From a virus (taxonomy: Duplodnaviria; Heunggongvirae; Uroviricota; Caudoviricetes), in IMG/VR virus record IMGVR_UViG_3300028653_000011: a stretch of 64,000 nucleotides of DNA. The stretch is one strand, 5' to 3'. Below, piece by piece: positions 4,050 to 60,264 of the stretch. Each line of letters starts with the position of its first letter. Position 1 is the stretch's first letter. The position numbers were made by a program, and so were the translations under genes. The notes beneath the pieces are model-generated. The model did no database searches and was not told the origin of the DNA. It was given only the letters and a program-made list of their open reading frames with translations.

Positions 4050-5264
4050 GTGTACGTTGGTTTGGTGCATCGCTTTTGCCTAGACGCCGCGCTCCTCGGC
4101 ACCGACAAGCACCTGCTCGTCGACGGTGAGAGCGCATCGTGGTCACCCGTCGTTCCACCGAAGGTGTTCCACTGCACCGGCCACGTGAAGTCCACCAGCG
4201 AGCAGTGCCTCGACACCGTCGCCAAGTTGGCAGGCCTCGAGCTGCCCTTCGCGCCGCCGCCACGCTTCGTGCAGGCGATGTCAGCGTTGTCGGGCTCAAT
4301 CACCGGTGATGTGCCGTGGCAGCAGGTGATGCCCGCCGCCGCCCACCAAGACTTCATCAGGTGCCTCGTCAATGCGACCAGGGTTGTCATGCAATCGGCC
4401 CTCGTCGATTATTTTGAGGGCATTTGGGTGCCAGGTAGTGTTGTTGTGGCTTCGCTCGCTCGCGCATCCATCGACGTGACCAAGTGGCAGGAGTTAGTCG
4501 CCGTGGGATTGGGCAACGTGCCCGCGTTGAAGTCGTTTCAACCTGATGCTGACGGCTTCGCACGCGCAGTCATCTACGATCGGTTCGCGACGCTGACGGG
4601 ACGCCTGACGGTGACAGCGGGCCCACAGATCTTGACGTTGAAGCGGGAACACCGGTGCATCCTCAGGTCGCGCCATGGCGATGCCGGGACGATCGTCGCC
4701 CTCGACTTTGCGGCCCTCGAGGCCCGAGTGTTGCTGTACGAGTTCGGCCGCAGCTGCGATGAACCTGACCTGTACGGGGCGCTGGCACGCGAATTGGGCC
4801 ACGATCGCAAGGCGATCAAGGGTGCTGTCATCTGTGAGCTGTACGGCAGCAGCAAGTACGCATTGGGCAAGCACTTGGGCATCGAAGGCAAGGAGCTCAA
4901 TCACTTCGTCAAGCGCGTCAAGGCCTACTTTAGGACCAGCGAGCTGCTGGCGCGGATCAAGGCACAGTTCGTGGCGACGGGCTTCATCACCAATCGCTAC
5001 GGCCGACCCATCAAGGTCGATGAACCTCTCGATCACGTGCTGGTCAATCACTATGCACAGTCCACCGGCGTTGACGTGACGATGTTGGGCTTTCACCAAG
5101 TCATCCAACGTTTGCCGCCGAGGACGAAGCCGATCTTCCTGCTTCACGACTCGATCCTGCTCGACGTGCACAATGATGACTTGGCCGAAGTGCAGAAGAT
5201 CGACAACGTGCGTGTCAAGGGCTATGTTCAGAAGTTTCCGTTGAGGATGGAGAAGATTGCATGA
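4050..5264 (+). CDS. Family A DNA polymerase, polymerase domain only (no recognisable exonuclease domains)
   Basis: Motif A LDFAALEARVL, motif B RKAIKGAVICELYG, motif C LLHDSIL. Only 404 aa; the start may be GTG 4065. Confidence 0.8.
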   Translation: MYVGLVHRFCLDAALLGTDKHLLVDGESASWSPVVPPKVFHCTGHVKSTSEQCLDTVAKLAGLELPFAPPPRFVQAMSALSGSITGDVPWQQVMPAAAHQDFIRCLVNATRVVMQSALVDYFEGIWVPGSVVVASLARASIDVTKWQELVAVGLGNVPALKSFQPDADGFARAVIYDRFATLTGRLTVTAGPQILTLKREHRCILRSRHGDAGTIVALDFAALEARVLLYEFGRSCDEPDLYGALARELGHDRKAIKGAVICELYGSSKYALGKHLGIEGKELNHFVKRVKAYFRTSELLARIKAQFVATGFITNRYGRPIKVDEPLDHVLVNHYAQSTGVDVTMLGFHQVIQRLPPRTKPIFLLHDSILLDVHNDDLAEVQKIDNVRVKGYVQKFPLRMEKIA

Positions 5265-5509
5265 TGACCCCGGGCACCGTCATCGAGTGGCGCTATGTGT
5301 CGAGCGCCAGGCGCGTACGCGGCGGCACAATGATGCTGGTCGACTTCGGTCCCGACGTGTTGATCGGTGGCTTTCACCTGCTGATCGGCTTCGTCGACGA
5401 CGTGATGACGTGGATGCCCTTGGGCCGTGCCAAGTTGTACCAAGTCAGGATCGCCACCCAACGCCTCGTCTATCCGTGTGAGGCAGTGATGCTGATGGGG
5501 CACACGTGA
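5261..5509 (+). CDS. Small 'MKPGDLIEW'-family protein (diverged paralog)
   Basis: TPGTVIEWRY...IGGFHLLI...MTWMPLG matches the family pattern. Confidence 0.6.
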   Translation: MMTPGTVIEWRYVSSARRVRGGTMMLVDFGPDVLIGGFHLLIGFVDDVMTWMPLGRAKLYQVRIATQRLVYPCEAVMLMGHT

Positions 5510-5769
5510 AACCGGGTGACCTGATCGAGTGGGTGTATGAACCCGAGAATGTACTTGTGCGCGCCAATGAACACATGTGGTCGTCGATGATGAAAGCCTG
5601 GGTCCACATCGGAGGTGTCCACTTGCTTATCTCTCGCGCCGAAGGCACCCTGACGTGGTTGCCCCTCGGTGCATTTGACAAGGGGTTGCTCCGCGCGCGC
5701 GCGGATGATACATGGCGACAGCGTTCGCAAACCACTAGGACCGCGGTTGCTCCACGTAGCGTCGAATGA
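5506..5769 (+). CDS. Small 'MKPGDLIEW'-family protein with an embedded CRISPR-like repeat unit
   Basis: MKPGDLIEW...WSS...IGGVHLLIS...GTLTWLPLG...KGLLRAR...VAPR. Confidence 0.7.
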   Translation: MKPGDLIEWVYEPENVLVRANEHMWSSMMKAWVHIGGVHLLISRAEGTLTWLPLGAFDKGLLRARADDTWRQRSQTTRTAVAPRSVE

Positions 5770-5772
5770 TGG
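5684..5772. CRISPR. Repeat-spacer-degenerate repeat unit (type I-E-like)
   Basis: GGTTGCTCCGCGCGCGCGCGGATGATAC (5684-5711) is 25/28 identical to the 53.8 kb repeat and has a 6-bp stem with 4-nt loop. A 33-nt spacer follows, then GGTTGCTCCACG...TGAT at 5745 (period 61). Confidence 0.6.
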
Positions 5773-5775
5773 CGC

Positions 5776-5804
5776 CTGAACACTGTGCCCGGTGATGATA
5801 AGAT
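5776..5804 (+). promoter_or_regulatory. Sigma70-like promoter CTGAAC-N17-TAAGAT (leaderless)
   Basis: 17-nt spacer; ATG 5811 lies 6 nt after the -10 element. Confidence 0.7.
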
Positions 5805-5810
5805 CAACCC

Positions 5811-6431
5811 ATGTCGTTGACACCTGAGCAGATTGAGCAGAACTGGCTACGCTTTCGGACGTTGTGTGGCAAGTTGGGTGAGCGCTCACCCGCGGTGATG
5901 CGGATGGTCGATGAGCTCGATGAGCGGCTGTGCCTGTGCCCGGCGTCGTCGAAGAGGGATTTCCACCACGCATTCCCAGGAGGTTTAATTTCGCACTCAT
6001 TACGCGTATTGAACAATTTGGTCATTCTCAATAATTCATATGGATGGAATTTGCCTAAGGACAGCATGATTATCGCCGCATTGTTTCACGACATCGGAAA
6101 ATGTGGGCTACCAGGCACTGATGCGGTGAATGACTTTTATACACCTCAAACAGACGGCTGGCGTGTTGAAAAAATGGGTGAGGAGTACAAGTACAACAAC
6201 GATCTAGCCTATATGACGACGCCTGATCGAAGTATGTTTATGATGCAACACTACGGTATTCAACTCTCTATTGATGAATATTTGTCAATCAAATTAAATG
6301 ATGGCTTTATCGTGCCTGAAAACAAGTCATATGGATTGAAGATTTCTCCACTGGTCTATGGGACGATGACAGCAGATTATGTCAGTACAATGGAAGAAAA
6401 ACACGTAGCATATTGGCCGTCTGAACAATGA
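5811..6431 (+). CDS. HD-domain phosphohydrolase (YhaM/Cbf1-like)
   Basis: HHAFPGGLISHSLRV ... AALFHDIGK. Confidence 0.8.
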   Translation: MSLTPEQIEQNWLRFRTLCGKLGERSPAVMRMVDELDERLCLCPASSKRDFHHAFPGGLISHSLRVLNNLVILNNSYGWNLPKDSMIIAALFHDIGKCGLPGTDAVNDFYTPQTDGWRVEKMGEEYKYNNDLAYMTTPDRSMFMMQHYGIQLSIDEYLSIKLNDGFIVPENKSYGLKISPLVYGTMTADYVSTMEEKHVAYWPSEQ

Positions 6432-27187: not shown

Positions 27188-27481
27188 ATGAAACCCGGTG
27201 ACCTCATCGAGTGGTTTTACAAGTTGAACGGCGACGTCGTTCATCCTCGTGAAACGTTGTGGTCGTCGATTGAGCAGCGCTACGTGCCCATCGGGGGCAC
27301 CCACCTGTTGGTCAGCATCGTCAACGGTGAGCTGACCTTCCTCACTTTGGGGGCACAATGTAAGGGGTTGCTCCGCGCGCACGAGGATGATCTAGTGAGC
27401 GCGTCGGACTTCGAGGCATCGTGGCGGATTGCTCCACGCGTGAGTGAGTGTAAAGTGTTGGTGCCTCGTGGTAGGATGTAG
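27188..27481 (+). CDS. 'MKPGDLIEW'-family protein with embedded repeat unit
   Basis: Family motifs; KGLLRAHEDD ... IAPRV. Confidence 0.7.
   Translation: MKPGDLIEWFYKLNGDVVHPRETLWSSIEQRYVPIGGTHLLVSIVNGELTFLTLGAQCKGLLRAHEDDLVSASDFEASWRIAPRVSECKVLVPRGRM
27366..27440. CRISPR. Repeat-spacer-partial repeat unit (type I-E-like)
   Basis: GGTTGCTCCGCGCGCACGAGGATGATCT (23/28 to the 53.8 kb repeat), a 33-nt spacer, then GATTGCTCCACGCG at 27427 (period 61). Confidence 0.5.
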
Positions 27482-27485
27482 CTAG

Positions 27486-27743
27486 ATGTGTCCCTATCGC
27501 TATGCGCTGCAGCCGTCGTCGGTGCCCCGTCCTCGACGTACCCTATTGGGTCGTTACAGGACGTTCTGCCGGCGCGTCGAAGTCTTCTTCGGTCGCCTGC
27601 ACTTGGGCCGCCTGAAGCGAGACACCTGCTTTGCGTGCGGCAAGCGAGAACCGGGACCTGCGAATCGTACGTCACGGCACCGAGATTTTCCTGACCTGTA
27701 CGACTGTGGTTGCATTGAGAGGAGTTGCTCACATGATCGCTGA
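27486..27743 (+). CDS. Hypothetical protein with CxxC motifs
   Basis: TAGGAT -10 element at 27472-27477 upstream; CFAC, CGC. Confidence 0.4.
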   Translation: MCPYRYALQPSSVPRPRRTLLGRYRTFCRRVEVFFGRLHLGRLKRDTCFACGKREPGPANRTSRHRDFPDLYDCGCIERSCSHDR

Positions 27744-33397: not shown

Positions 33398-33955
33398 GTG
33401 AAGCGCGCCCTGCTCCTCAATGCCGATTACACACCCCTCCATTTCATCAGCGATTGGCGTGCCATTCGCCTGGTGATGCTCTCTCGCGCCGAGATCGTCA
33501 TTGACTTTCAGACGGGTCTGCCGTCGGTGTGGGATGACGAGGCCTTCACTTCGCCCGGATTGATGCCCACTGATCCACTGCGATCGGTCGCCATCCCGGC
33601 GACGTTGCGGATGTACCGCAAGATCCACAAGAAGTGGAAGCCACCGCGTTTTCGCAGCCAAGTGTTGTTCAACCGTGATGATTGGACGTGCCAGTATTGC
33701 GGCACCAAGTTGTCGTGGAAGACGGTCGAGATCGAGCACGTGGTGCCGTTGTCACGTGGTGGGCCGACGACGTGGCTCAACTGCGTGTCTGCGTGCAGGG
33801 ACTGCAACAAGCGCAAGGGCAACAGGACGCCCGACGAAGTGGGCATGAAGCTGTTGAAGAAGCCCGCCAGTCCGACGGCACTGCACTTCTGGGACGCCGC
33901 CAAGACCGATTGTTACCACCCGTCGTGGGATACATTCCTCCCGAAGGAACGCTGA
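33398..33955 (+). CDS. HNH endonuclease
   Basis: LLLNADYTPL, RDDWTCQYCG, EHVVPLSRGG, WLNCVSACRDCNKRKG. Confidence 0.9.
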   Translation: MKRALLLNADYTPLHFISDWRAIRLVMLSRAEIVIDFQTGLPSVWDDEAFTSPGLMPTDPLRSVAIPATLRMYRKIHKKWKPPRFRSQVLFNRDDWTCQYCGTKLSWKTVEIEHVVPLSRGGPTTWLNCVSACRDCNKRKGNRTPDEVGMKLLKKPASPTALHFWDAAKTDCYHPSWDTFLPKER

Positions 33956-51255: not shown

Positions 51256-52599
51256 ATGGGCGTGTGCGGGAGTAAAATGAAGAGCATGAAGCGACTACTG
51301 GTGACGACGCAGTTGAGCAACTTTGTCGACGGTAAAGCAGATCTCGCTTGCGATAGCGGGTGGCAAATGTGCATCAACCGCATCCGCGAGATGCTACGAT
51401 TGAACCCCAACCTCTACGTCGACATCATGGGACCCAATGAGGATCAGTTGGTGCAGCACCCCGCCGACGTCAATCCTGATCTGGTTGCGATGTACGGCGA
51501 GATCGACGTGCCACGATTGCGGTACATTGAGCACCCAATCGTCACCAGCGCGCTGATCACCCGCTATGACTTCAAGTGGTCGGAGATCGCCGACTCAATG
51601 GGCCTCGAGGAACACAAGGCTGATGTCACCCAGCGCTATGACGCCGTCTATGTGAATGATCCCATGCAGCTCCGCGCCTTCAAGGCCATGTTCCACGTCG
51701 TCGGGGGCTACCAACCCAAGTTCTTCGTGCACTCACACTTCGTCGACGTCCCCGAGGTCCCCAAGTTCCCAGCCGAAGCGTCGCTGTGGCTGGGCCAGTG
51801 CGAGGCCACGCTGAAGGCTGACTACAACTTCTGGCAGTGCGAGTCGGCGATGAACCAGTTCTTCGACAGCATGGGCAAGTGGTTCGTGCAGGACGTGGTC
51901 GACGACGTGCGGGCTAAATCGCAAGCGTCTGATGACGGGTATTCGATTGCGGAGATCACTTCGCCCATATGCCAAGCTAATCTACGGTTTACGGACGCTG
52001 AGTGGCGTGCCAAGACTAATGGTAAGGTGGTACTGTTCTTTCCCAATCGCATTAGCCAGAGTTCAAGTGATTACACGCGTGGTTGGTGGTTCACACATGA
52101 GTTCATGCCCAAACTTCGACAACGTCGCCAAGACTATGTCGTGGTGTGCGGTAATCCTAACATGAAGCTGTCGAATGATGAACTCGTTCAATTATGTGGG
52201 CCTCATGGTTATGTTAAGCTGCACGATCACACGTTCAATCGTGATGAGTATAAGTACGTTGCGTCACACAGTGACATTGTCGTAGCGCTGTATGATGCCA
52301 AGAGTGACGCGTACGGTGGGACGGCCTCTCGAGAATGCATTGAATTGGGGTGTGTACCATGCTGGCCTTCTTGCAATGAATATTTGAGCCTTGCTCGAGA
52401 AGCAAGAGTTGAACACCTATTGGCCAAGTCTGACTTGTCTGATTTAGTAGACGTCGCAGACAATCTCATTGGTCTTGCGGGTTCATCATCTTTGCCATTG
52501 AAACAGTACAATGAACGATTGCGTGAAGTTGTACGTAGGCGCTGTTCGTTTGAACAGACTGTTCCCACAATGATGAAAAAGATGGGTCTACTATGCTAA
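51256..52599 (+). CDS. GT-B fold glycosyltransferase
   Basis: VHSHF, FPNRIS, RDEYKYVASHSDIVVAL, YGGTASRECIELGCVP (GT4/GT1-like C-terminal motif). Confidence 0.65.
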   Translation: MGVCGSKMKSMKRLLVTTQLSNFVDGKADLACDSGWQMCINRIREMLRLNPNLYVDIMGPNEDQLVQHPADVNPDLVAMYGEIDVPRLRYIEHPIVTSALITRYDFKWSEIADSMGLEEHKADVTQRYDAVYVNDPMQLRAFKAMFHVVGGYQPKFFVHSHFVDVPEVPKFPAEASLWLGQCEATLKADYNFWQCESAMNQFFDSMGKWFVQDVVDDVRAKSQASDDGYSIAEITSPICQANLRFTDAEWRAKTNGKVVLFFPNRISQSSSDYTRGWWFTHEFMPKLRQRRQDYVVVCGNPNMKLSNDELVQLCGPHGYVKLHDHTFNRDEYKYVASHSDIVVALYDAKSDAYGGTASRECIELGCVPCWPSCNEYLSLAREARVEHLLAKSDLSDLVDVADNLIGLAGSSSLPLKQYNERLREVVRRRCSFEQTVPTMMKKMGLLC

Positions 52600-53618
52600 T
52601 TGAAGTTCTCGAAACATGGATCAAGACGCCTCGATACAAGAATCGTGGTAAACGACGATTGTTAGCGATTGTTGCGTGTGATGCGTGCGGCAAACGTGAA
52701 CAGCTACCATACATCAACGGAATGTGGGAGACTCGAAAACGCGTCTGTTCACCTGAGTGTGATACAAAACTACGATCTCGTGGTGGTGCGCTTTATGCAA
52801 GTATCACGGCGACGAACGTAGAGCGATATGGCGCAAAGTACGCATCAGCGACTGATTTAGGAAAGCACAAACAGGAAGAGACAAATCTTAGAAAGTATGG
52901 ATATAAGGCATCCTCACAATCACCTGAAGTTGAAGCTAAACGACTTAACACGTGTCTTTCTATGTATGGCGGACCTGCAGCAACAAGTGACGCGAACGTC
53001 AGAGCGAAAGTCAAGTTGACGTGTGATACCAAGTTTGGTGGTGGTGTGTTGCTCGATGATGATATTCGAGAGCAATTCAACGCAACTATGGTAGAACGAC
53101 ATGGTGCACCGTGGGCAGCACAATCAGCAATCATTCTCGCTAAACAACATCAGACCAACATTGAACGTTATGGAGTTGCGTTTCCATTCCACACAGATGA
53201 AGCGAAGTCAAGAGCACACTCACCCCAAGCGCTACTCAAACGCCATGAGACCATGAAGCGTAATGGCACATACAGGACTTCAAAGCCTGAAGACCGTCTC
53301 TATCAAGTTCTGTGTGAGATGTTTGATATAGACGACGTCGACCGCCAGACGCTCGTATACAAGTGGCCAATTGACTTCTACGCCAAGAGCATTGACACCT
53401 ACGTACAGTACGACAGTTATTGGCATGGCGTCGGACGCGCAATCATTGAGGTCGCTGAACACAAGGTGCCTCGAGACGTCTCGATTCACAAGAAGATGCT
53501 GACTGACATCGCTCAGGATGCGTACTTCGCCGAACGTGGCATGCGGCTCATTCGTGTGCAGAGCCTGACGCCTGAACAGATTACCCCCGCGGCCATGCGT
53601 CGCATGGGCCTGCTGTGA
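52593..53618 (+). CDS. Homing-endonuclease-like protein (paralog of 8405-9337)
   Basis: CDAC, RYG/KYG repeats, IDFYAKSIDTYVQYDSYWHG. Confidence 0.7.
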   Translation: MLIEVLETWIKTPRYKNRGKRRLLAIVACDACGKREQLPYINGMWETRKRVCSPECDTKLRSRGGALYASITATNVERYGAKYASATDLGKHKQEETNLRKYGYKASSQSPEVEAKRLNTCLSMYGGPAATSDANVRAKVKLTCDTKFGGGVLLDDDIREQFNATMVERHGAPWAAQSAIILAKQHQTNIERYGVAFPFHTDEAKSRAHSPQALLKRHETMKRNGTYRTSKPEDRLYQVLCEMFDIDDVDRQTLVYKWPIDFYAKSIDTYVQYDSYWHGVGRAIIEVAEHKVPRDVSIHKKMLTDIAQDAYFAERGMRLIRVQSLTPEQITPAAMRRMGLL

Positions 53619-53619
53619 C

Positions 53620-53946
53620 ATGAAACCCGGTGACCTCATCGAGTGGGCGTACAAGTCGGACGGCAAAGTCGTTCACCCCCATGAAGAATTGTGGTCATCG
53701 ATCGAGAAACGCTACGTGCCCATCGGCGGCCTACACCTGTTCGTCAGCAATGTTGACGGCACCCTGACATGGCTGCCTCTGGGTGAGAATTGTAAGGGGT
53801 TGCTCCACGCGCGCGAGGCTGATACGATGGCCAGGTCGGGCCGGTCGTTCGCGACGAGCGGTTGCTCCACGCGCGCGAGGCTGATACCGACCTGTACGGC
53901 GAGTGGTGCGACGACGAAGTCGGTTGCTCCACGCGCGCGAGGCTGA
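53620..53946 (+). CDS. 'MKPGDLIEW'-family protein reading through a CRISPR mini-array
   Basis: Family motifs; the stop codon lies inside the third repeat. Confidence 0.65.
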   Translation: MKPGDLIEWAYKSDGKVVHPHEELWSSIEKRYVPIGGLHLFVSNVDGTLTWLPLGENCKGLLHAREADTMARSGRSFATSGCSTRARLIPTCTASGATTKSVAPRARG

Positions 53947-53949
53947 TAC
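53798..53949. CRISPR. CRISPR mini-array, 3 identical 28-nt repeats and 2 spacers of 34 nt (type I-E-like)
   Basis: GGTTGCTCCACGCGCGCGAGGCTGATAC at 53798, 53860 and 53922. Spacers are GATGGCCAGGTCGGGCCGGTCGTTCGCGACGAGC and CGACCTGTACGGCGAGTGGTGCGACGACGAAGTC. Confidence 0.85.
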
Positions 53950-53997
53950 GGTAGGCGTGCCGAGACGTCGCCGATTGTACCCACGCCTGTACCACAC

Positions 53998-54026
53998 CTG
54001 AACACTGATCTCTCATGTGGTACAGT
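53998..54026 (+). promoter_or_regulatory. Promoter CTGAAC-N17-TACAGT (leaderless)
   Basis: ATG 54034 lies 7 nt after the -10 element; shares CCTGAACACTG with the 5775 promoter. Confidence 0.7.
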
Positions 54027-54033
54027 CTAACCC

Positions 54034-54990
54034 ATGACCGAACGGGTATTGATCACGGGCGCGGCGGGTTTCATCGGCTCAAACCTGGTCACCCGGTGCC
54101 TGGCCGAAGGGTGGGTCGTCCGCGGCGTCGACGACATGAGCAGTGGCCACCGAGAACTGCTGCACCCCGCCTTTAATACTGGTAGCCTGTTGATCGGCGA
54201 CTTTGCCGCTGATTTCGTCCTCAACTCGATCAGGGCACAGGCCTTCGACGTCGTCATTCACCTGGCGGCGACGCCCCGCGTCAGCTATTCCGTCGAACAC
54301 CCGCTGGAAACGCACGACAACAACGTCACCAAGACGCTGAAGTTGCTCGACGCCTGCACGGGCAACGTCAAACGCTTCGTCTTCGCCAGCTCCAGTGCCG
54401 TCTATGGTGGCGCGCTGGAGCTGCCCACTCCCGAGACGGCACCCAAGGAACCCAAGTCGCCCTATGCACTCCAGAAGTCGATCATTGAGGACTACCTGAA
54501 GTTGTACAGCAACCTCTACGGCCTCGACAGCGCTTGCCTGCGGTTCTTCAACGTCTTCGGCCCGGGCCAGTTGGGTAGCAATCCCTATGCGACGGCGATC
54601 GCGGCGTGGCTGACAGCGATCAAGCGCGGCGAGCCCATGCGCAGCGACGGTGACGGCTTTCAAAGCCGCGACATGTGCTACGTCGACAACGTCACTGATG
54701 CCTGTGCCAAGGCGGTGCAGAGCAAGGTACCCCTGATGGGAGCGTGTTACAACGTGGCCTGCGGCGACAATGTCTCCAACAACGACATCTTGGCGGTGTT
54801 GCGGGCCCATTACCCAGAGGCGACCGTCGTCAATGCGCCGGCTCGACGGGGCGACGTGATGCACACCATGGCCGACGTGTCGAAGGCCCAGCAACAGTTG
54901 GGCTACGTGCCGCTGGTCAAGTTCTGGCCGGGCCTCATCAAGACGATGATGTGGTACGAGCGTGAGTGGGAACAGATCAGGAGCCTGTGA
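54034..54990 (+). CDS. NAD-dependent NDP-sugar epimerase (extended SDR, GalE/WbpP-like)
   Basis: TGAAGFIGSNL, HLAA, FASSSAVYG, YALQK, LRFFNVFGPGQ. Confidence 0.9.
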   Translation: MTERVLITGAAGFIGSNLVTRCLAEGWVVRGVDDMSSGHRELLHPAFNTGSLLIGDFAADFVLNSIRAQAFDVVIHLAATPRVSYSVEHPLETHDNNVTKTLKLLDACTGNVKRFVFASSSAVYGGALELPTPETAPKEPKSPYALQKSIIEDYLKLYSNLYGLDSACLRFFNVFGPGQLGSNPYATAIAAWLTAIKRGEPMRSDGDGFQSRDMCYVDNVTDACAKAVQSKVPLMGACYNVACGDNVSNNDILAVLRAHYPEATVVNAPARRGDVMHTMADVSKAQQQLGYVPLVKFWPGLIKTMMWYEREWEQIRSL

Positions 54991-55187: not shown

Positions 55188-55417
55188 GCAATGTCAGGTC
55201 AGTCGCAGATTACCATGCAAATCACGCAATTGAAGCACTCAAAGTGCTCATTGAGTCAACGCCTGAAGGCGAGTTCGTAGATATCCCACAAACACGTCAA
55301 CAGCTCGAACAGATGCGTCAAAAATTGATCGGCATCGAACACATGAAGGATAGCGTCGCATACATCGATTATCAACTTGAACAGGGTGATTTGGGAAGGG
55401 TACGATTCGCAACATGA
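55184..55417 (+). CDS. Hypothetical protein
   Basis: Coupled ATG. Confidence 0.45.
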   Translation: MSNVRSVADYHANHAIEALKVLIESTPEGEFVDIPQTRQQLEQMRQKLIGIEHMKDSVAYIDYQLEQGDLGRVRFAT

Positions 55418-56169
55418 TTACTAACACCGTCTCTGACATGCGACTGGAGCTGGCACGTCACCTCGCTGACCAGCGCTTCACCAGCGTCAACCGTGAGGCG
55501 TCAATGACGTCGCTGGTCGGCGCCAAGACGATCGAACTGTGTGGTGTCAACTTCATCGCCGACCAAGAAGTGCTGTTCGGCAAGCTGAACCACGATTACC
55601 TCAAGCGTGAGGAACAGTGGTACCAGTCAATGTCGTGCAGCGTTGATGACTTTCCGGGTGGCGCCCCCGCGGTGTGGGAGGCAATCGCCTCGAGGGATGG
55701 ACTGGTCAACTCAAACTACGGCTACCTCATCCGTCACTCCGACAATGGTTATCAGTTCGACCACGTCGTTAACGAGTTACGAAGGAACCCGGAGTCCCGC
55801 CGAGCGGTGATGATCTACACCCGGCCGTCGATGTGGGTCGACTACAATAAGGGTGGGCGCTCTGACTTCGTCTGCACCAACACGGTGCAGTACCTGATCC
55901 GCGACGGTTCGGTGAGTGCTGTGGTGAATATGCGCTCACAAGATTCACACATCGGATATAAGAACGATCGCGAATGGCAGCGATTGACGCTCAACGCCGT
56001 CGCTGATGCGGTGGGAGTACCAGCGGGCGTGCTGATGTGGCAGGTGGGGTCGCTCCATGTCTACCAACGTGACTTCTACCTCGTCGATCACTTCATCAAG
56101 ACGCGTGAAGTCAACATCACCAAGGCGCAGTACCGTGAACTGTATCCCACGTCGCCGTATAATGAGTGA
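55414..56169 (+). CDS. dCMP hydroxymethylase-like (thymidylate synthase fold)
   Basis: NPESRRA, DFVCT, AVVNMRSQDSHIGYKNDREWQ, GSLHVY; Asp at the ThyA Asn177-equivalent position. Confidence 0.85.
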   Translation: MITNTVSDMRLELARHLADQRFTSVNREASMTSLVGAKTIELCGVNFIADQEVLFGKLNHDYLKREEQWYQSMSCSVDDFPGGAPAVWEAIASRDGLVNSNYGYLIRHSDNGYQFDHVVNELRRNPESRRAVMIYTRPSMWVDYNKGGRSDFVCTNTVQYLIRDGSVSAVVNMRSQDSHIGYKNDREWQRLTLNAVADAVGVPAGVLMWQVGSLHVYQRDFYLVDHFIKTREVNITKAQYRELYPTSPYNE

Positions 56170-57966: not shown

Positions 57967-58551
57967 ATGGCCGACACCAACGCCTCTCTGATCGTCTTCT
58001 GTGGGCCCATGATGTCGGGCAAGACGTCGAAGCTGTTGATGGCCCTCGAGCGCCTCAAGTACCAGCACAAGCGCGTTGCCGTCTTCAAGCCCTCGCTCGA
58101 CGTCAGGTACAGCGCCAGCGAAATCGTCAGCCACTTGGGTTGGCGGCACCCGGCGACGACGGTGCAAGGCGGCGCCGACATCCTCGAGGCACTGGCTGAG
58201 GCCGACGTGGCACCTGATGCGATTGCCGTCGACGAGGCCTTCATGATCCCGGGTGTCGCAGGGGTGTTGACGTGGTTGTACCGCACCGGCGTCGACGTCG
58301 TCGTCTCCACGCTCGACATTTCGGCGACGGGCAAGCCCTTTCCCGAGGTCGAGAAGTTGTTGCCGTGGGCCACGCACATCGAGAAGTGCTCGGCCGTCTG
58401 CACCCAGTGTGGCCGTGACGCCTTCTACACCCACAAGAAGCAGGTGTCGACCGACGATGAGATTGAAGTCGGTGGTGCCGAGATGTACGAGCCGCGTTGT
58501 AGCCGCCATCACGTCGCGATCGATCTGCGGCCCAAGCTCAATGAGCCATGA
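57967..58551 (+). CDS. tdk: Thymidine kinase
   Basis: CGPMMSGKT, VDEA, CTQCG, YEPRC. Confidence 0.9.
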   Translation: MADTNASLIVFCGPMMSGKTSKLLMALERLKYQHKRVAVFKPSLDVRYSASEIVSHLGWRHPATTVQGGADILEALAEADVAPDAIAVDEAFMIPGVAGVLTWLYRTGVDVVVSTLDISATGKPFPEVEKLLPWATHIEKCSAVCTQCGRDAFYTHKKQVSTDDEIEVGGAEMYEPRCSRHHVAIDLRPKLNEP

Positions 58552-58808
58552 AACCCGGCGATCTCATCGCGCGGGTGTACGAATCTGACGGCGTTACAGC
58601 ACTTCGTAGAGAAGAATTGTTATCATCGGTGACGGGCGATTACGTGCCCATTGGGGGCATTCACCTGTTGATCAGCTATGTCGATGGAATATTGACATGG
58701 TTGCCTTTGGGTGCAAACTGCAACGAGTTGTTTAGTGCGGACGAGAACGACACCGAAGCCGGCATTGCAGGCGACGACGTCATCTACGTACACGTGAGCC
58801 TGACATGA
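58548..58808 (+). CDS. 'MKPGDLIEW'-family protein (diverged)
   Basis: MKPGDLI...YVPIGGIHLLIS..DGILTWLPLG. Confidence 0.65.
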   Translation: MKPGDLIARVYESDGVTALRREELLSSVTGDYVPIGGIHLLISYVDGILTWLPLGANCNELFSADENDTEAGIAGDDVIYVHVSLT

Positions 58809-59095
58809 AGCCAGGCGACCTCATCGAGTGGGCGTATAGGGTTGATAATTGTGTCGTTGTTCACAGTGAATATTTGTGGTCATCGGTGTTCAATCGTTTT
58901 GTGCCCATTGGGGGCATCCACCTGCTGATCGGACGCGCCGATGGGATATTGACGTGGCTGTCTCTACGTGCAGCTCACAAGGGCTTGTTGCGAGCCGCCG
59001 AGCGCGATGTGCTGTGCCTAAGGGCGGAACGTCCTGCCGGCAAGGGTTGTTACGCACGTGTCTTCGGGCGCGGTGCGGTGAGGCCGACGGTGTAA
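58805..59095 (+). CDS. 'MKPGDLIEW'-family protein
   Basis: Family motifs; KGLLRAA; repeat-like GGTTGTTACGCACGTG at 59045. Confidence 0.65.
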   Translation: MKPGDLIEWAYRVDNCVVVHSEYLWSSVFNRFVPIGGIHLLIGRADGILTWLSLRAAHKGLLRAAERDVLCLRAERPAGKGCYARVFGRGAVRPTV

Positions 59096-59124
59096 TCGAT
59101 GATCCACCGTGGTATGATCAGTAG

Positions 59125-60264
59125 GTGATACCCATTCGCCGCCCATTCACAATGAAACTGCCCGCTGAAGTGTTGACCCTATCGAGCCTCTTCAATCAGG
59201 TGGGTCATGAGCTCTACGTGGTCGGCGGTGCCGTTCGCGATGCGGTGTTGGGGCAATCACCCAAGGACTTTGACGTGGCGACGGGGGCGACACCAGACCA
59301 AGTGGTGAAGCTGCTGAAGACACTGCCTGGCGGGTGCAAGATCAATGCCGTCGGCAAGTCATTCGGCGTCGTCAAGGTGCAGTTCTACGCCGCGCGCAAT
59401 GAACTCGAGATCGCCACGTTCCGCCAGGACGTGGGTGCAGGGCGAAGGCCTGAAAGCGTCGTCTTTACCACGATCGACGAGGACGTCAAGCGCCGTGATT
59501 TAACGATCAACGCGCTGTTCTTCGACATCGAACGCAGCGAACTCGTCGATCTGGTGGGCGGGTTGGCTGACCTCGACGCCAAGCTCGTCAGGACGGTGGG
59601 CGACCCATTCGCACGCTTTGCCGAAGATCGCCTCCGCATCCTGCGCGCCGTCAGGTTCGCCTGCAAGTTGGGCTTTGACATCGAAGGGATGACTGCGCAG
59701 GCGATCAAGCACGACCCCAACCTTCACGGCGTGTCGCCTGAGCGCATTCACGACGAGTTCACTCGTGCCGTGGCGACGGCGAAACACGTGCCGGCACTGA
59801 TGCAGCACCTGAACTACTTTGACCTGTGGCCTCACGTGCTGCCGGGCCTCAACGTGTCGTACCAGTTGGCCGAAGGCATCACCTCACGCGTGCCTGAGGT
59901 CGCACTAGCAGTGCTGCTCGATCACCAGCGACCGTGTGGCATCGACGAGCGTTTGGCCGCGCTGAAGTACAGCGCTCACGAGATCTCGCGGACGACGTTC
60001 CTGTTGAGGTACCGCGACCTCGAGGTGTCGAGTGCCTTCAAGCTGCGCAAGGCCTTCTTGGCGTGCTCGATGAGCGCTGAGGTGCTGCAGGACTACTATC
60101 GCCTGCGGGGCCTGCCCGTCACTGCGTTGGTCAGGGCCTTCAACGACTACCTGCGCGCGGCGCCCGTCAAGGGCGGCGACGTGATGAAGGATGGTTTTGC
60201 TAAGCAGGCGCTTGGCGCTGAGATTGAACGACGTGAGACCGAGATTTTCAAGGGGTTGCTATGA
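59125..60264 (+). CDS. CCA-adding enzyme / poly(A) polymerase family nucleotidyltransferase
   Basis: VVGGAVRD, DFDVAT, RRDLTINA, EDRLRILRAVRF. Confidence 0.9.
   Translation: MIPIRRPFTMKLPAEVLTLSSLFNQVGHELYVVGGAVRDAVLGQSPKDFDVATGATPDQVVKLLKTLPGGCKINAVGKSFGVVKVQFYAARNELEIATFRQDVGAGRRPESVVFTTIDEDVKRRDLTINALFFDIERSELVDLVGGLADLDAKLVRTVGDPFARFAEDRLRILRAVRFACKLGFDIEGMTAQAIKHDPNLHGVSPERIHDEFTRAVATAKHVPALMQHLNYFDLWPHVLPGLNVSYQLAEGITSRVPEVALAVLLDHQRPCGIDERLAALKYSAHEISRTTFLLRYRDLEVSSAFKLRKAFLACSMSAEVLQDYYRLRGLPVTALVRAFNDYLRAAPVKGGDVMKDGFAKQALGAEIERRETEIFKGLL

Follow-up and report, generated by a model that had tools for sequence, protein, structure and literature searches.

Type I-E-like repeat-spacer units in the coding 3' ends of a multi-copy phage gene: a candidate ORF-embedded form of virus-borne mini-CRISPR arrays

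In a 64,000-nucleotide stretch of a Caudoviricetes phage genome (the window), which forms part of the 215,857-bp IMG/VR virus record IMGVR_UViG_3300028653_000011 (G000; estimated to be 63% complete), three identical 28-nt repeats separated by two spacers lie at positions 53798-53949 in a small open reading frame (ORF), in an arrangement resembling a CRISPR array (short palindromic repeats that are clustered and regularly interspaced). An earlier reading, made from the sequence only, had taken this to be a single acquisition event at one gene. We find instead that it is one example of a family-wide property, seen in several phage lineages, of a multi-copy gene in which the repeat supplies the C-terminal codons. 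The explanation of the whole that we put forward, with slightly more confidence than doubt, is that these loci are an ORF-embedded form of virus-borne mini-CRISPR arrays; the narrower proposition that their repeat-spacer units originate from a Cas1-Cas2-type integrase is, taken alone, probable. An overlapping record (G005; 99.99% identity over 17.7 kb) adds 82 kb, so that ~298 kb of this phage could be analysed.

Results

The focal array and its carrier gene

The sequence GGTTGCTCCACGCGCGCGAGGCTGATAC was found three times in the window without a mismatch and at a constant period of 62 nt, and none of 100 dinucleotide shuffles gave a match. The repeats, the two 34-nt spacers and the ORF around them (Table 1) are as the sequence-only reading had described them, the coordinates and the ORF list being in agreement. 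Three direct repeats of 28 nt at 100% identity, with unique spacers of uniform length, fall within the generic definition of a CRISPR array (at least three near-identical direct repeats of 23-47 nt). The spacers are unrelated to one another (7/34 positions identical, counted by eye), and no match to either was confirmed in the window, as had been claimed, or in the genome. Downstream of repeat 3 there are probably a further spacer, the oldest, and a degenerate fourth repeat, both of which the earlier reading had missed; this fourth repeat has GTACCCACGC in common with the terminal repeat of L034, a 1.4-kb metagenome contig described below. We propose that the array at 53798-53949 is the youngest and cleanest of the mini-arrays.

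Repeat 1 provides the codons for KGLLHAREDDT, the C-terminal motif of a family of ~70-residue proteins, and the repeat can be read over the three frames as GLLHAREDDT, GCSTRARMI and VAPRARG*. In the focal ORF the successive repeats are read in three different frames (GLLHAREADT, GCSTRARLI and VAPRARG*, the TGA stop at 53944-53946 lying within repeat 3), which identifies the element as a nucleotide repeat and rules out a repeat at the protein level. The small protein belongs to no Pfam family. AlphaFold gave a weak model (mean pLDDT 53), in which residues 22-65 form beta strands and the spacer-encoded tail (residues 72-108), predicted to be disordered, lies below pLDDT 50. The window contained no tRNAs and no Rfam families at the gathering threshold, and neither megablast nor blastn of the focal locus against INPHARED gave a match.

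Table 1. Positions of the focal array, the related loci of the window and the adjacent downstream gene (all positions are those of the window).
Feature	Position	Strand	Description
Paralog	5506..5772	+	Repeat 5684-5711, 33-nt spacer 5712-5744, degenerate repeat 5745-5772
Paralog	27188..27481	+	Repeat 27366-27393, 33-nt spacer 27394-27426, degenerate repeat 27427-27454
Small ORF, 108 aa	53620..53946	+	From the ORF list; holds all three focal repeats. Residues 1-69, conserved body (MKPGDLIEW...KGLLHAREADT family); residues 70-108, read-through of spacers and repeats
Repeat 1	53798..53825	+	Reads GLLHAREADT in the frame of the gene
Spacer 1	53826..53859	+	34 nt, GC 0.74, first base G; no match found elsewhere
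Repeat 2	53860..53887	+	Identical to repeat 1; second frame, GCSTRARLI
Spacer 2	53888..53921	+	34 nt, GC 0.65, first base C; no match found elsewhere
Repeat 3	53922..53949	+	Identical to repeats 1 and 2; third frame, VAPRARG*
Probable oldest spacer	53950..53980	+	~31 nt; read from sequence, borders approximate
Probable degenerate terminal (fourth) repeat	~53981..54008	+	GATTGTACCCACGCC...; read from sequence; overlaps the -35-like TGAACA at 53999-54004
Promoter-like TGAACA-16 nt-TACAGT	53999..54036	+	Read from sequence; epimerase ATG 7 nt downstream (leaderless)
NAD-dependent sugar epimerase/dehydratase gene	54034..54990	+	Pfam PF01370, E = 5.6e-50; context only
Paralog	58548..58808	+	Protein motif kept (NELFSADENDT), repeat nucleotide sequence not; no repeat-spacer unit
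Paralog	58805..59095	+	Equivalents of the repeat, strongly diverged, 58983-59010 and 59045-59072 (period 62)

Repeat-spacer units vary in number among paralogs and lineages

With tblastn, ~15 paralogs of the small gene were found in the record, four or five of them inside the window, and the number of repeat-spacer units per paralog ranged from 0 to 3. The repeat occurs alone, with no unit, in the paralogs at 195896 and 211015 of the phage genome; it is followed by 33 nt and a degenerate repeat at window positions 5684 and 27366 and at G005:25881; and two or three units are present at window position 53798 (array A) and at genome position 202300 (array B). Array B has the layout repeat-33-repeat-33-repeat, with 4 mismatches in the last repeat and an ORF that stops in repeat 2, and it is identical in a second record. 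Spacer length is constant per array: the focal array and L034 have spacers of 34 nt, array B and almost all the others spacers of 33 nt; where the period is 62 nt the ORF passes two repeats before the in-repeat TGA, and where it is 61 nt the stop lies in repeat 2. The bodies of the paralogous genes are 78-90% identical, and the spacers that lie between equally conserved repeats are at background similarity, which shows that these segments were replaced and not mutated. Neutral divergence of a single ancestral tail was ruled out on the same ground, the spacers being at background similarity on bodies that are 80-90% identical. Paralogs with 86% mutual identity were found to differ by one unit.

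The same architecture, with the same sharp repeat borders, was present in two further phage lineages (47% and 54% GC), and six or more independent contigs from several samples show it. The lineage at 47% GC was recovered from IMG/VR and by protein-guided scans (records 3300014838_000014, 3300037099_000186, 3300037099_000250, 3300037099_000386, 3300037108_000024 and others); its small genes form tandem runs, and their motif EGLFHARVDDT is encoded by GGTTGTTCCACGCGCGCGTGGATGACAC, the core of which is a perfect 16-nt palindrome. The third lineage is represented by JBBAUR010000009.1 (L032, or G003:C9), an 89-kb fragment of a related huge phage that was binned in a metagenome-assembled genome (MAG) assigned to 'Bdellovibrionota'. 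This contig has protein-level synteny with the phage genome and no similarity was seen in the other contigs of the MAG; the GC content of the MAG (0.53) against that of the contig (0.54) may reflect compositional co-binning or be a weak hint of a host. As evidence of a host the MAG was rejected, since the contig is itself phage and the MAG is without Cas1; its GC content is also far below that of the spacers on the contig (see below). A second, profile-based search for the family returned the same contigs only.

Comparison of the locus across relatives, proposed with the sequence-only reading, showed that spacer number differs at equivalent positions. On the L034 contig there are three perfect repeats with three 34-nt spacers, followed by a terminal repeat that is degenerate. 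The 817 nt upstream show 80% identity to the sequence that precedes the paralog at 195896 of the phage genome, where a single repeat is present. These loci are called positionally equivalent rather than strictly orthologous, the small gene of L034 being about equally similar to several paralogs. A different relationship was seen between L017:1151 and position 33758 of G002 (minus strand), where homology (91% downstream) begins exactly at the repeat and the gene bodies upstream are those of different paralogs, indicating that the repeat is also a recombination joint at which gene bodies and tails are shuffled. The repeats of the two-spacer array at L017 1090/1151 differ from one another at 4 positions.

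Spacers are uniform in length, tend to begin with G and differ in composition from the phage

Spacer statistics were compiled for 49 distinct spacers from the three lineages, 11 of which are flanked by near-identical repeats and are referred to as recent. Thirty spacers are 33 nt long, eight are 34 nt and the other 11 lie between 27 and 42 nt, and every one of the recent spacers (11/11) is 33 or 34 nt; the corresponding periods, 61 nt (30 cases) and 62 nt (8 cases), have the dimensions of type I-E arrays (repeat 28-29 nt, period 61-62 nt). The first spacer base is G in 32/49 (background 0.33; p = 4e-6) and in 9/11 of the recent ones, as expected in type I-E for a base derived from the protospacer adjacent motif, and the last base shows no comparable bias. 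The sequence-only reading had noted a G after the repeat on the minus strand in both focal spacers; this did not prove general, the bias being on the plus strand. Three independent markers, namely the direction in which the carrier gene is transcribed, the distal location of degenerate repeats and the G that follows the repeat, point to the plus strand as the orientation of the arrays.

The spacers are also richer in GC than their surroundings. In the low-GC relatives spacer GC is 0.60 against 0.47 for the genome and 0.46 for the gene bodies (p = 2e-11), in the lineage of the window it is 0.67 against 0.575 (p = 0.004), and on the 89-kb contig G003:C9, with two spacers only, it is 0.73 against 0.54. 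A 3-base periodicity in GC is present in the spacers overall (p = 0.003), and several spacers of the low-GC lineage have 91-100% GC in one phase. In the focal array, GC by codon phase is 1.00/0.36/0.82 for spacer 1 and 0.92/0.73/0.27 for spacer 2 (each p<0.01 by shuffling); the high-GC phase of spacer 1 is the frame of the phage ORF itself and that of spacer 2 is as if the spacer stood directly 3' of repeat 1. Of the earlier proposal that the two spacers are coding DNA of opposite polarity, the codon-like periodicity thus holds for both, and the opposite polarity is not required for spacer 1. Together, the foreign composition and the coding-like periodicity argue that the spacers are DNA captured from a source richer in GC. 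Shuffling of cassettes among paralogs was ruled out as their origin, as no spacer was found at two loci in ~520 kb from the three lineages.

The arrays are polar, with perfect repeats proximal to the gene and degenerate repeats distal, and the repeats of an array have variants in common that no other array possesses, which speaks for duplication in situ; the focal array has GGCTGATAC, for example, the array at G001:4274 has TGTG and that at G001:5171 has GGTTATTCC. Polar addition, variation in the number of units and distal decay, the marks of spacer turnover, were seen across loci; array A was seen in one assembly.

The repeat is selected as a nucleotide sequence and partly resembles type I-E repeats

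The repeat can be written as GGTTG(C/T)TCCACGCGCGCG(A/T)GGATGA, with a palindrome centred exactly within the 28-mer. Codon counts in the 47%-GC lineage were markedly different between the repeat interior and the rest of the same genes: for Gly, GGG 25 and GGT 7 in the repeat against GGG 1 and GGT 55 outside it; for Ala, GCG 27 and GCC 0 against GCG 3 and GCC 20; for Arg, CGC 16 and CGT 7 against CGC 8 and CGT 40; for Val, GTG 25 and GTT 2 against GTG 39 and GTT 71; and for His, CAC 17 and CAT 8 against CAC 8 and CAT 26. Codon usage is thus reversed inside the repeat, indicating that the nucleotide sequence itself is under selection. The repeats of the relatives and the copy at 5684, whose core TCCGCGCGCGCGCGGA is a perfect palindrome, fold as RNA at -10 kcal/mol with a 6-bp stem and a CGCG loop, compared with -14.3 kcal/mol for the type I-E repeat of Thermus thermophilus, and the focal repeat folds at -2.4 kcal/mol on the plus strand and -5 kcal/mol on the minus strand, its weakness being due to an A.A and a U.C mismatch. 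Stem pairs are retained in 63-89% of repeat variants, with little covariation.

Reference type I-E arrays were taken from records in which they lie beside cas operons, that of T. thermophilus HB8 pTT27 (repeat GTAGTCCCCACGCGTGTGGGGATGGACCG, periods 61-63) and that of Escherichia coli K-12 (repeat GAGTTCCCCGCGCCAGCGGGGATAAACCG, periods 61-62). Without any shift, the phage repeats match these at 16-19/29 positions in either orientation, as the element is palindromic; the best match (19/29, plus orientation) is that of the TGTG variant to the Thermus repeat, with CCACGCGTGTG.GGATG in common, and a score of 17/29 to the T. thermophilus repeat is attained by ~2.5e-4 of the 29-mers genome-wide. The sequence-only reading had aligned the focal repeat at 19/29 to the E. 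coli repeat, which is approximately right, the repeat of the K-12 record giving 17-18/29 in either orientation. The dimensions, the geometry and part of the sequence are I-E-like, as judged from sequence comparison, and membership in a known repeat family is unsupported: in Rfam and among species representatives, neither a curated type I-E family that includes the repeat nor near-identity to a cas-linked array was found. A literature search with the Thermus repeat string gave nothing. We also noted, on an unrelated viral contig (L011, IMGVR_UViG_3300010221_000074, ~4150-4300), an intergenic mini-array of three repeats (GTxCGTCCCACGCGCGCGGGTGAAAGGT) with spacers of ~31-32 nt, bracketed by the inverted repeat TTCCGCAGAATTCTGCGGAAC; it surfaced only through 18 nt common to its first repeat and the query.

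Tandem junctions, promoters and neighbouring genes

Co-option of the distal repeat is evident in tandem runs of the small gene, in which its right half forms the Shine-Dalgarno (SD) sequence and the beginning of the following paralog. An SD-like GAGGA lies in the right half of the repeat, from which the following paralog takes its SD and ATG at 201859/202122 of the phage genome. In the relatives the right half of the distal repeat has turned into GGAGAACATCGATG. As the ribosome-binding region of the next paralog, the distal repeat reads ...GGTTGTTCCACGCG TTGTCGGAGAACATCGATGA in relatives (G001, G002 and L013-L018) and ...GAGGATGATATGAAACCC at 201859/202122, which is outside the window.

Elements resembling -35 and -10 sequences follow each module of paralog plus array (window positions 53999-54036, 5775-5815, 27455-27490 and 59095-59125), with start codons of the downstream genes 6-10 nt past the -10 (leaderless), and the modules stand directly upstream of the promoters of unrelated genes. 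The similarity among these sites suggests that the element at 53999-54036 is a promoter; a scan of 53300-54200 with consensus promoter and terminator models made no call there, the TGAACA/TACAGT module scoring 8/12 at a threshold of 9. A high-GC host such as an actinobacterium would fit leaderless promoters, and type I-E systems are common in actinobacteria. Upstream of the focal gene, the neighbour at 52593-53618 matches Pfam DUF7487 (E = 5.5e-19) and a 447-aa ORF at 51256-52599 has no Pfam match; a search of IMG/VR for relatives of the DUF7487 gene gave none. The ORF at 55414-56169 encodes a thymidylate-synthase-fold protein, which fits a cytosine-modification cluster.

Discussion

How the arrays may have arisen

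We propose that the 28-nt element is a type I-E-like CRISPR repeat, kept at the nucleotide level within the last codons of a multi-copy small gene, and that a Cas1-Cas2-type integrase supplied in trans would repeatedly insert fragments of 33-34 bp, foreign, rich in GC and coding-like, directly 3' of the gene-proximal repeat, duplicating the 28-bp repeat at every insertion. The integrase would most likely come from a type I-E host and less likely from the unsampled ~60 kb of the phage. Recombination between repeats would then remove old units and shuffle gene bodies and tails, with homogenisation of the left half of the distal repeat with repeat 1 as a further consequence, and the outcome would be many short, polar and rapidly changing mini-arrays per genome. 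A duplication of 28 bp together with an unrelated insert of ~33 bp that tends to begin with G is the footprint of type I-E Cas1-Cas2 integration, and we know of no other enzyme class that leaves it. The acquisition by machinery in trans that the sequence-only reading had envisaged at a gene-embedded repeat is in keeping with this insertion behaviour, I-E-like and duplicative, and what did not survive is its restriction to one event and one gene. Since the arrays lie at the 3' ends of transcribed genes in the sense orientation, repeat-spacer RNA would be made within the mRNA.

Several observations weigh against this proposal. Cas1, Cas2, Cas6e and Cas7e were not found in the 216-kb record, in agreement with the claim that no cas genes lie near the array, and Cas1 was not found in the further 82 kb of G005; no phage-encoded CRISPR-Cas system was therefore seen in ~298 kb, with ~60 kb of the genome lying outside the sampled sequence. 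A scan of representatives of 185,579 species with the degenerate pattern TTGYTCCRCGCGCGCGNGGNTGA brought up no CRISPR array of a bacterium, the sole two-copy match being the 89-kb phage contig of the third lineage; repeats identical to those of a host were thus not identified in this genome collection. The repeat matched no Rfam CRISPR-DR family even at E <= 10. Searches of the phage's DNA, of contigs from related phages, of INPHARED and of PLSDB revealed no protospacer, bacterial genomes and metagenomes not having been searched with the spacers, and four recent spacers had none in IMG/VR with wobble-tolerant or exact patterns. When 50 spacers were compared with the ~520 kb of the three related lineages, only self or orthologous matches were obtained and no targets in related viruses, so that self-targeting and targeting of related phages, both considered, found no match; the arrays gave matches at chance level only in PLSDB (best E = 3e-3, across a spacer/repeat border). 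The sequence-only reading had held that a lack of spacer targets or of a similar host repeat would speak against acquisition, and in the collections searched neither was found. At the level of the arrays themselves, the first spacers have an in-frame stop in only 1/34 cases, against ~20% in the other frames, so the tails are also under some coding or translational-coupling constraint; arrays A and L034 have only 34-nt spacers and the others 33-nt spacers, for which the ruler of a single integrase offers no obvious explanation; and the array at L017 1090/1151, judging from its repeats, looks to have been made by recombination between paralogs and not by insertion. The focal repeat is a poor RNA hairpin, no better than shuffled sequences and on the plus strand worse than them, which makes Cas6e-type processing of the focal array doubtful. 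Putative modified cytosines in the phage genome might also hinder an integrase.

Alternative explanations

A serious rival, which we rate as less probable but by no means negligible, is that the units are accidental scars of the kind called neo-CRISPR: a palindromic gene end would be kept for a reason internal to the phage, such as a hairpin for mRNA processing or stability, translational coupling in tandem gene arrays or a recombination joint, its likeness to a type I-E repeat being fortuitous, and host Cas1-Cas2 would occasionally integrate there without benefit to the phage, the insertions being tolerated because the tail is disordered. Much at the loci would fit this, including the SD-like GAGGA in the right half of the repeat that provides the SD and ATG of the next paralog at tandem junctions, the homology of related phages that breaks exactly at the repeat, the weak focal hairpin, the lack of a host repeat match among species representatives, the predicted disorder of residues 72-108 and the filtering of first spacers for open frames. 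However, in the low-GC lineage repeat 1 precedes a spacer and not a gene start, yet it keeps its 16-nt palindrome against codon bias; insertions at dozens of loci in three lineages imply efficient recognition, which would be unusual for a fortuitous site; and the repeat tracks I-E repeats in its length, its centring and its 3' end.

We think it improbable that a cassette system of the phage, unrelated to CRISPR, is at work, in which a recombinase or template switching would use the two flanking repeats as recognition sites and make hypervariable 11-residue tails on a family of binding proteins, the type I-E dimensions being coincidental. That translation runs through the variable segment, which is kept open (in-frame stops in 1/34), that the family is large, tandemly expanded and diversified, that spacer length is uniform per array and that neither cas genes nor a host repeat were found would all agree with such a system. 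The later spacers of multi-unit arrays are, however, in other frames or untranslated (the ORF of array B stops in repeat 2), the frame rule is broken by the 34-nt spacers, the spacers are foreign to the phage in composition, ~520 kb contain no copy that could be a donor or template, and the combination of duplication, insert and leading G is, as established knowledge has it, specific to I-E adaptation. Less credible again is a collapse of tandem paralogs, whereby genes ending in repeat, 33-nt tail and half repeat would have their tails stacked into arrays by half-to-full-repeat deletions. Relatives do have tandem runs of such genes, and the L017 1090/1151 array, with its non-identical repeats and a homology break at the repeat, is as this model predicts; it leaves unexplained, however, the three identical repeats with GGCTGATAC, a variant present in no other copy in 298 kb, as well as the unrelated tails on paralogs that are 80-90% identical, the origin of the first unit, the G at position 1 and the foreign GC content. 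An assembly artefact or simple tandem duplication, named with the earlier reading as something to check, is disfavoured to the point of being very hard to credit: array A is present in one assembly only, but its spacers are unrelated, array B is found unchanged in a second record, and six or more independent contigs, from several samples, have this architecture.

Possible roles and wider meaning

Returning to our proposal of ORF-embedded mini-CRISPR arrays, selection on the repeat at the nucleotide level leads us to think that it serves the phage. Of the candidate uses we put first a decoy for Cas6e/Cascade, as in RNA anti-CRISPRs (Racrs), combined with a landing pad to which host adaptation would be diverted; second come guides by which host Cascade would be hijacked, as in mini-arrays or in arrays of crRNA-like regulatory RNAs (Cracrs); and last, no use at all. 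The poor focal hairpin together with the recent duplications suggests that recognition of the DNA by an integrase is more robust here than any function at the RNA level. In a more specific version, to which we attach only a small probability, the repeats would be mimics of the integration target: dozens of translated I-E-like repeat copies, deliberately kept and amounting to thousands of landing pads in an infected cell, would out-compete the single host array for Cas1-Cas2. Were this true, new spacers, mostly GC-rich host DNA released in infection, would be diverted into phage DNA and the host would not be immunised, and the sense-strand repeat-spacer RNAs could load host Cascade-Cas3 against the host chromosome. 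To our knowledge, neither an anti-adaptation strategy of this kind nor the birth of CRISPR arrays inside genes has been described.

If Cas1-Cas2 does write the units, a CRISPR integrase would naturally and repeatedly build arrays inside protein-coding genes of a virus, with tens of repeat copies possible per phage genome. The loci would offer a testable system for the origin of new arrays, for the target requirements of Cas1-Cas2 and for interference by phages with the adaptation stage, and the GC-rich, coding-like spacers provide a possible handle on the host of this clade of huge phages. Such elements escape standard screens, since ORFs are masked by SRUFinder and CRISPR finders require three or more repeats.

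Comparison with known systems

Like canonical type I-E arrays (T. thermophilus HB8 pTT27 and E. coli K-12), the phage loci have a 28/29-nt repeat, periods of 61-63 nt, a G at the repeat-spacer border and a central GC-rich palindrome with a 4-nt loop, and the core CCACGCG.G.G.GGATG is common to them and the Thermus repeat. They differ from these in overall identity (16-19/29), in the 3' handle (TGATAC here, GGACC/AAACC there), in a weaker stem (-2 to -10 compared with -14 kcal/mol) and in having neither the usual leader nor an adjacent cas operon. Work by Nivala and colleagues in 2018 reportedly showed that E. coli Cas1-Cas2 can integrate spacers ectopically ('neo-CRISPR'), at non-canonical genomic sites, as a rare event in the bacterial chromosome. 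The present loci share with it the gain of a spacer by a repeat-like sequence that lies outside a CRISPR locus and is duplicated, whereas here the sites are conserved, multi-copy, carried by phages and used repeatedly in several lineages.

Virus-borne mini-arrays have one or two spacers, no cas genes, an intergenic position and repeats identical to those of the host, and mostly target related viruses (PMC11656645). The arrays described here are similarly short, viral and without cas genes; their repeats and spacers have canonical lengths, their terminal repeat is degenerate, and they would presumably rely on Cas proteins of the host. They are unlike mini-arrays in that no host repeat and no viral target were found, that repeat 1 is the coding 3' end of a gene and that paralogous loci are numerous in each genome. 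Racrs are small non-coding RNAs encoded just 3' of a promoter, and type I-E Racrs exist; the pipeline by which such solitary repeat units (SRUs) were discovered, SRUFinder, masks ORFs, so that repeats embedded in ORFs were excluded by design (PMC10651486). A phage-borne CRISPR-like repeat without cas genes is common to both, as is the repeat standing alone (195896 and 211015 of the phage genome), whereas here the repeat is translated and ends an mRNA on its 3' side, and the focal copy folds poorly. Cracr arrays resemble the present ones as phage arrays of I-E type with two or three spacers and imperfect downstream repeats; in those tested, the spacer-like segments are 21 and 24 nt long and match the promoters of cas or toxin genes (10.1101/2024.10.29.618823), whereas the spacers here, for which no target was found, have the full interference length of 33-34 nt. 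Virus-borne mini-arrays, solitary repeats and arrays resembling those for CRISPR RNAs are thus already known. What is new is the absence of a matching host repeat, the evidence of ongoing turnover at loci in three lineages, and a repeat that is embedded in the coding 3' end of a multi-copy gene, at many loci per genome.

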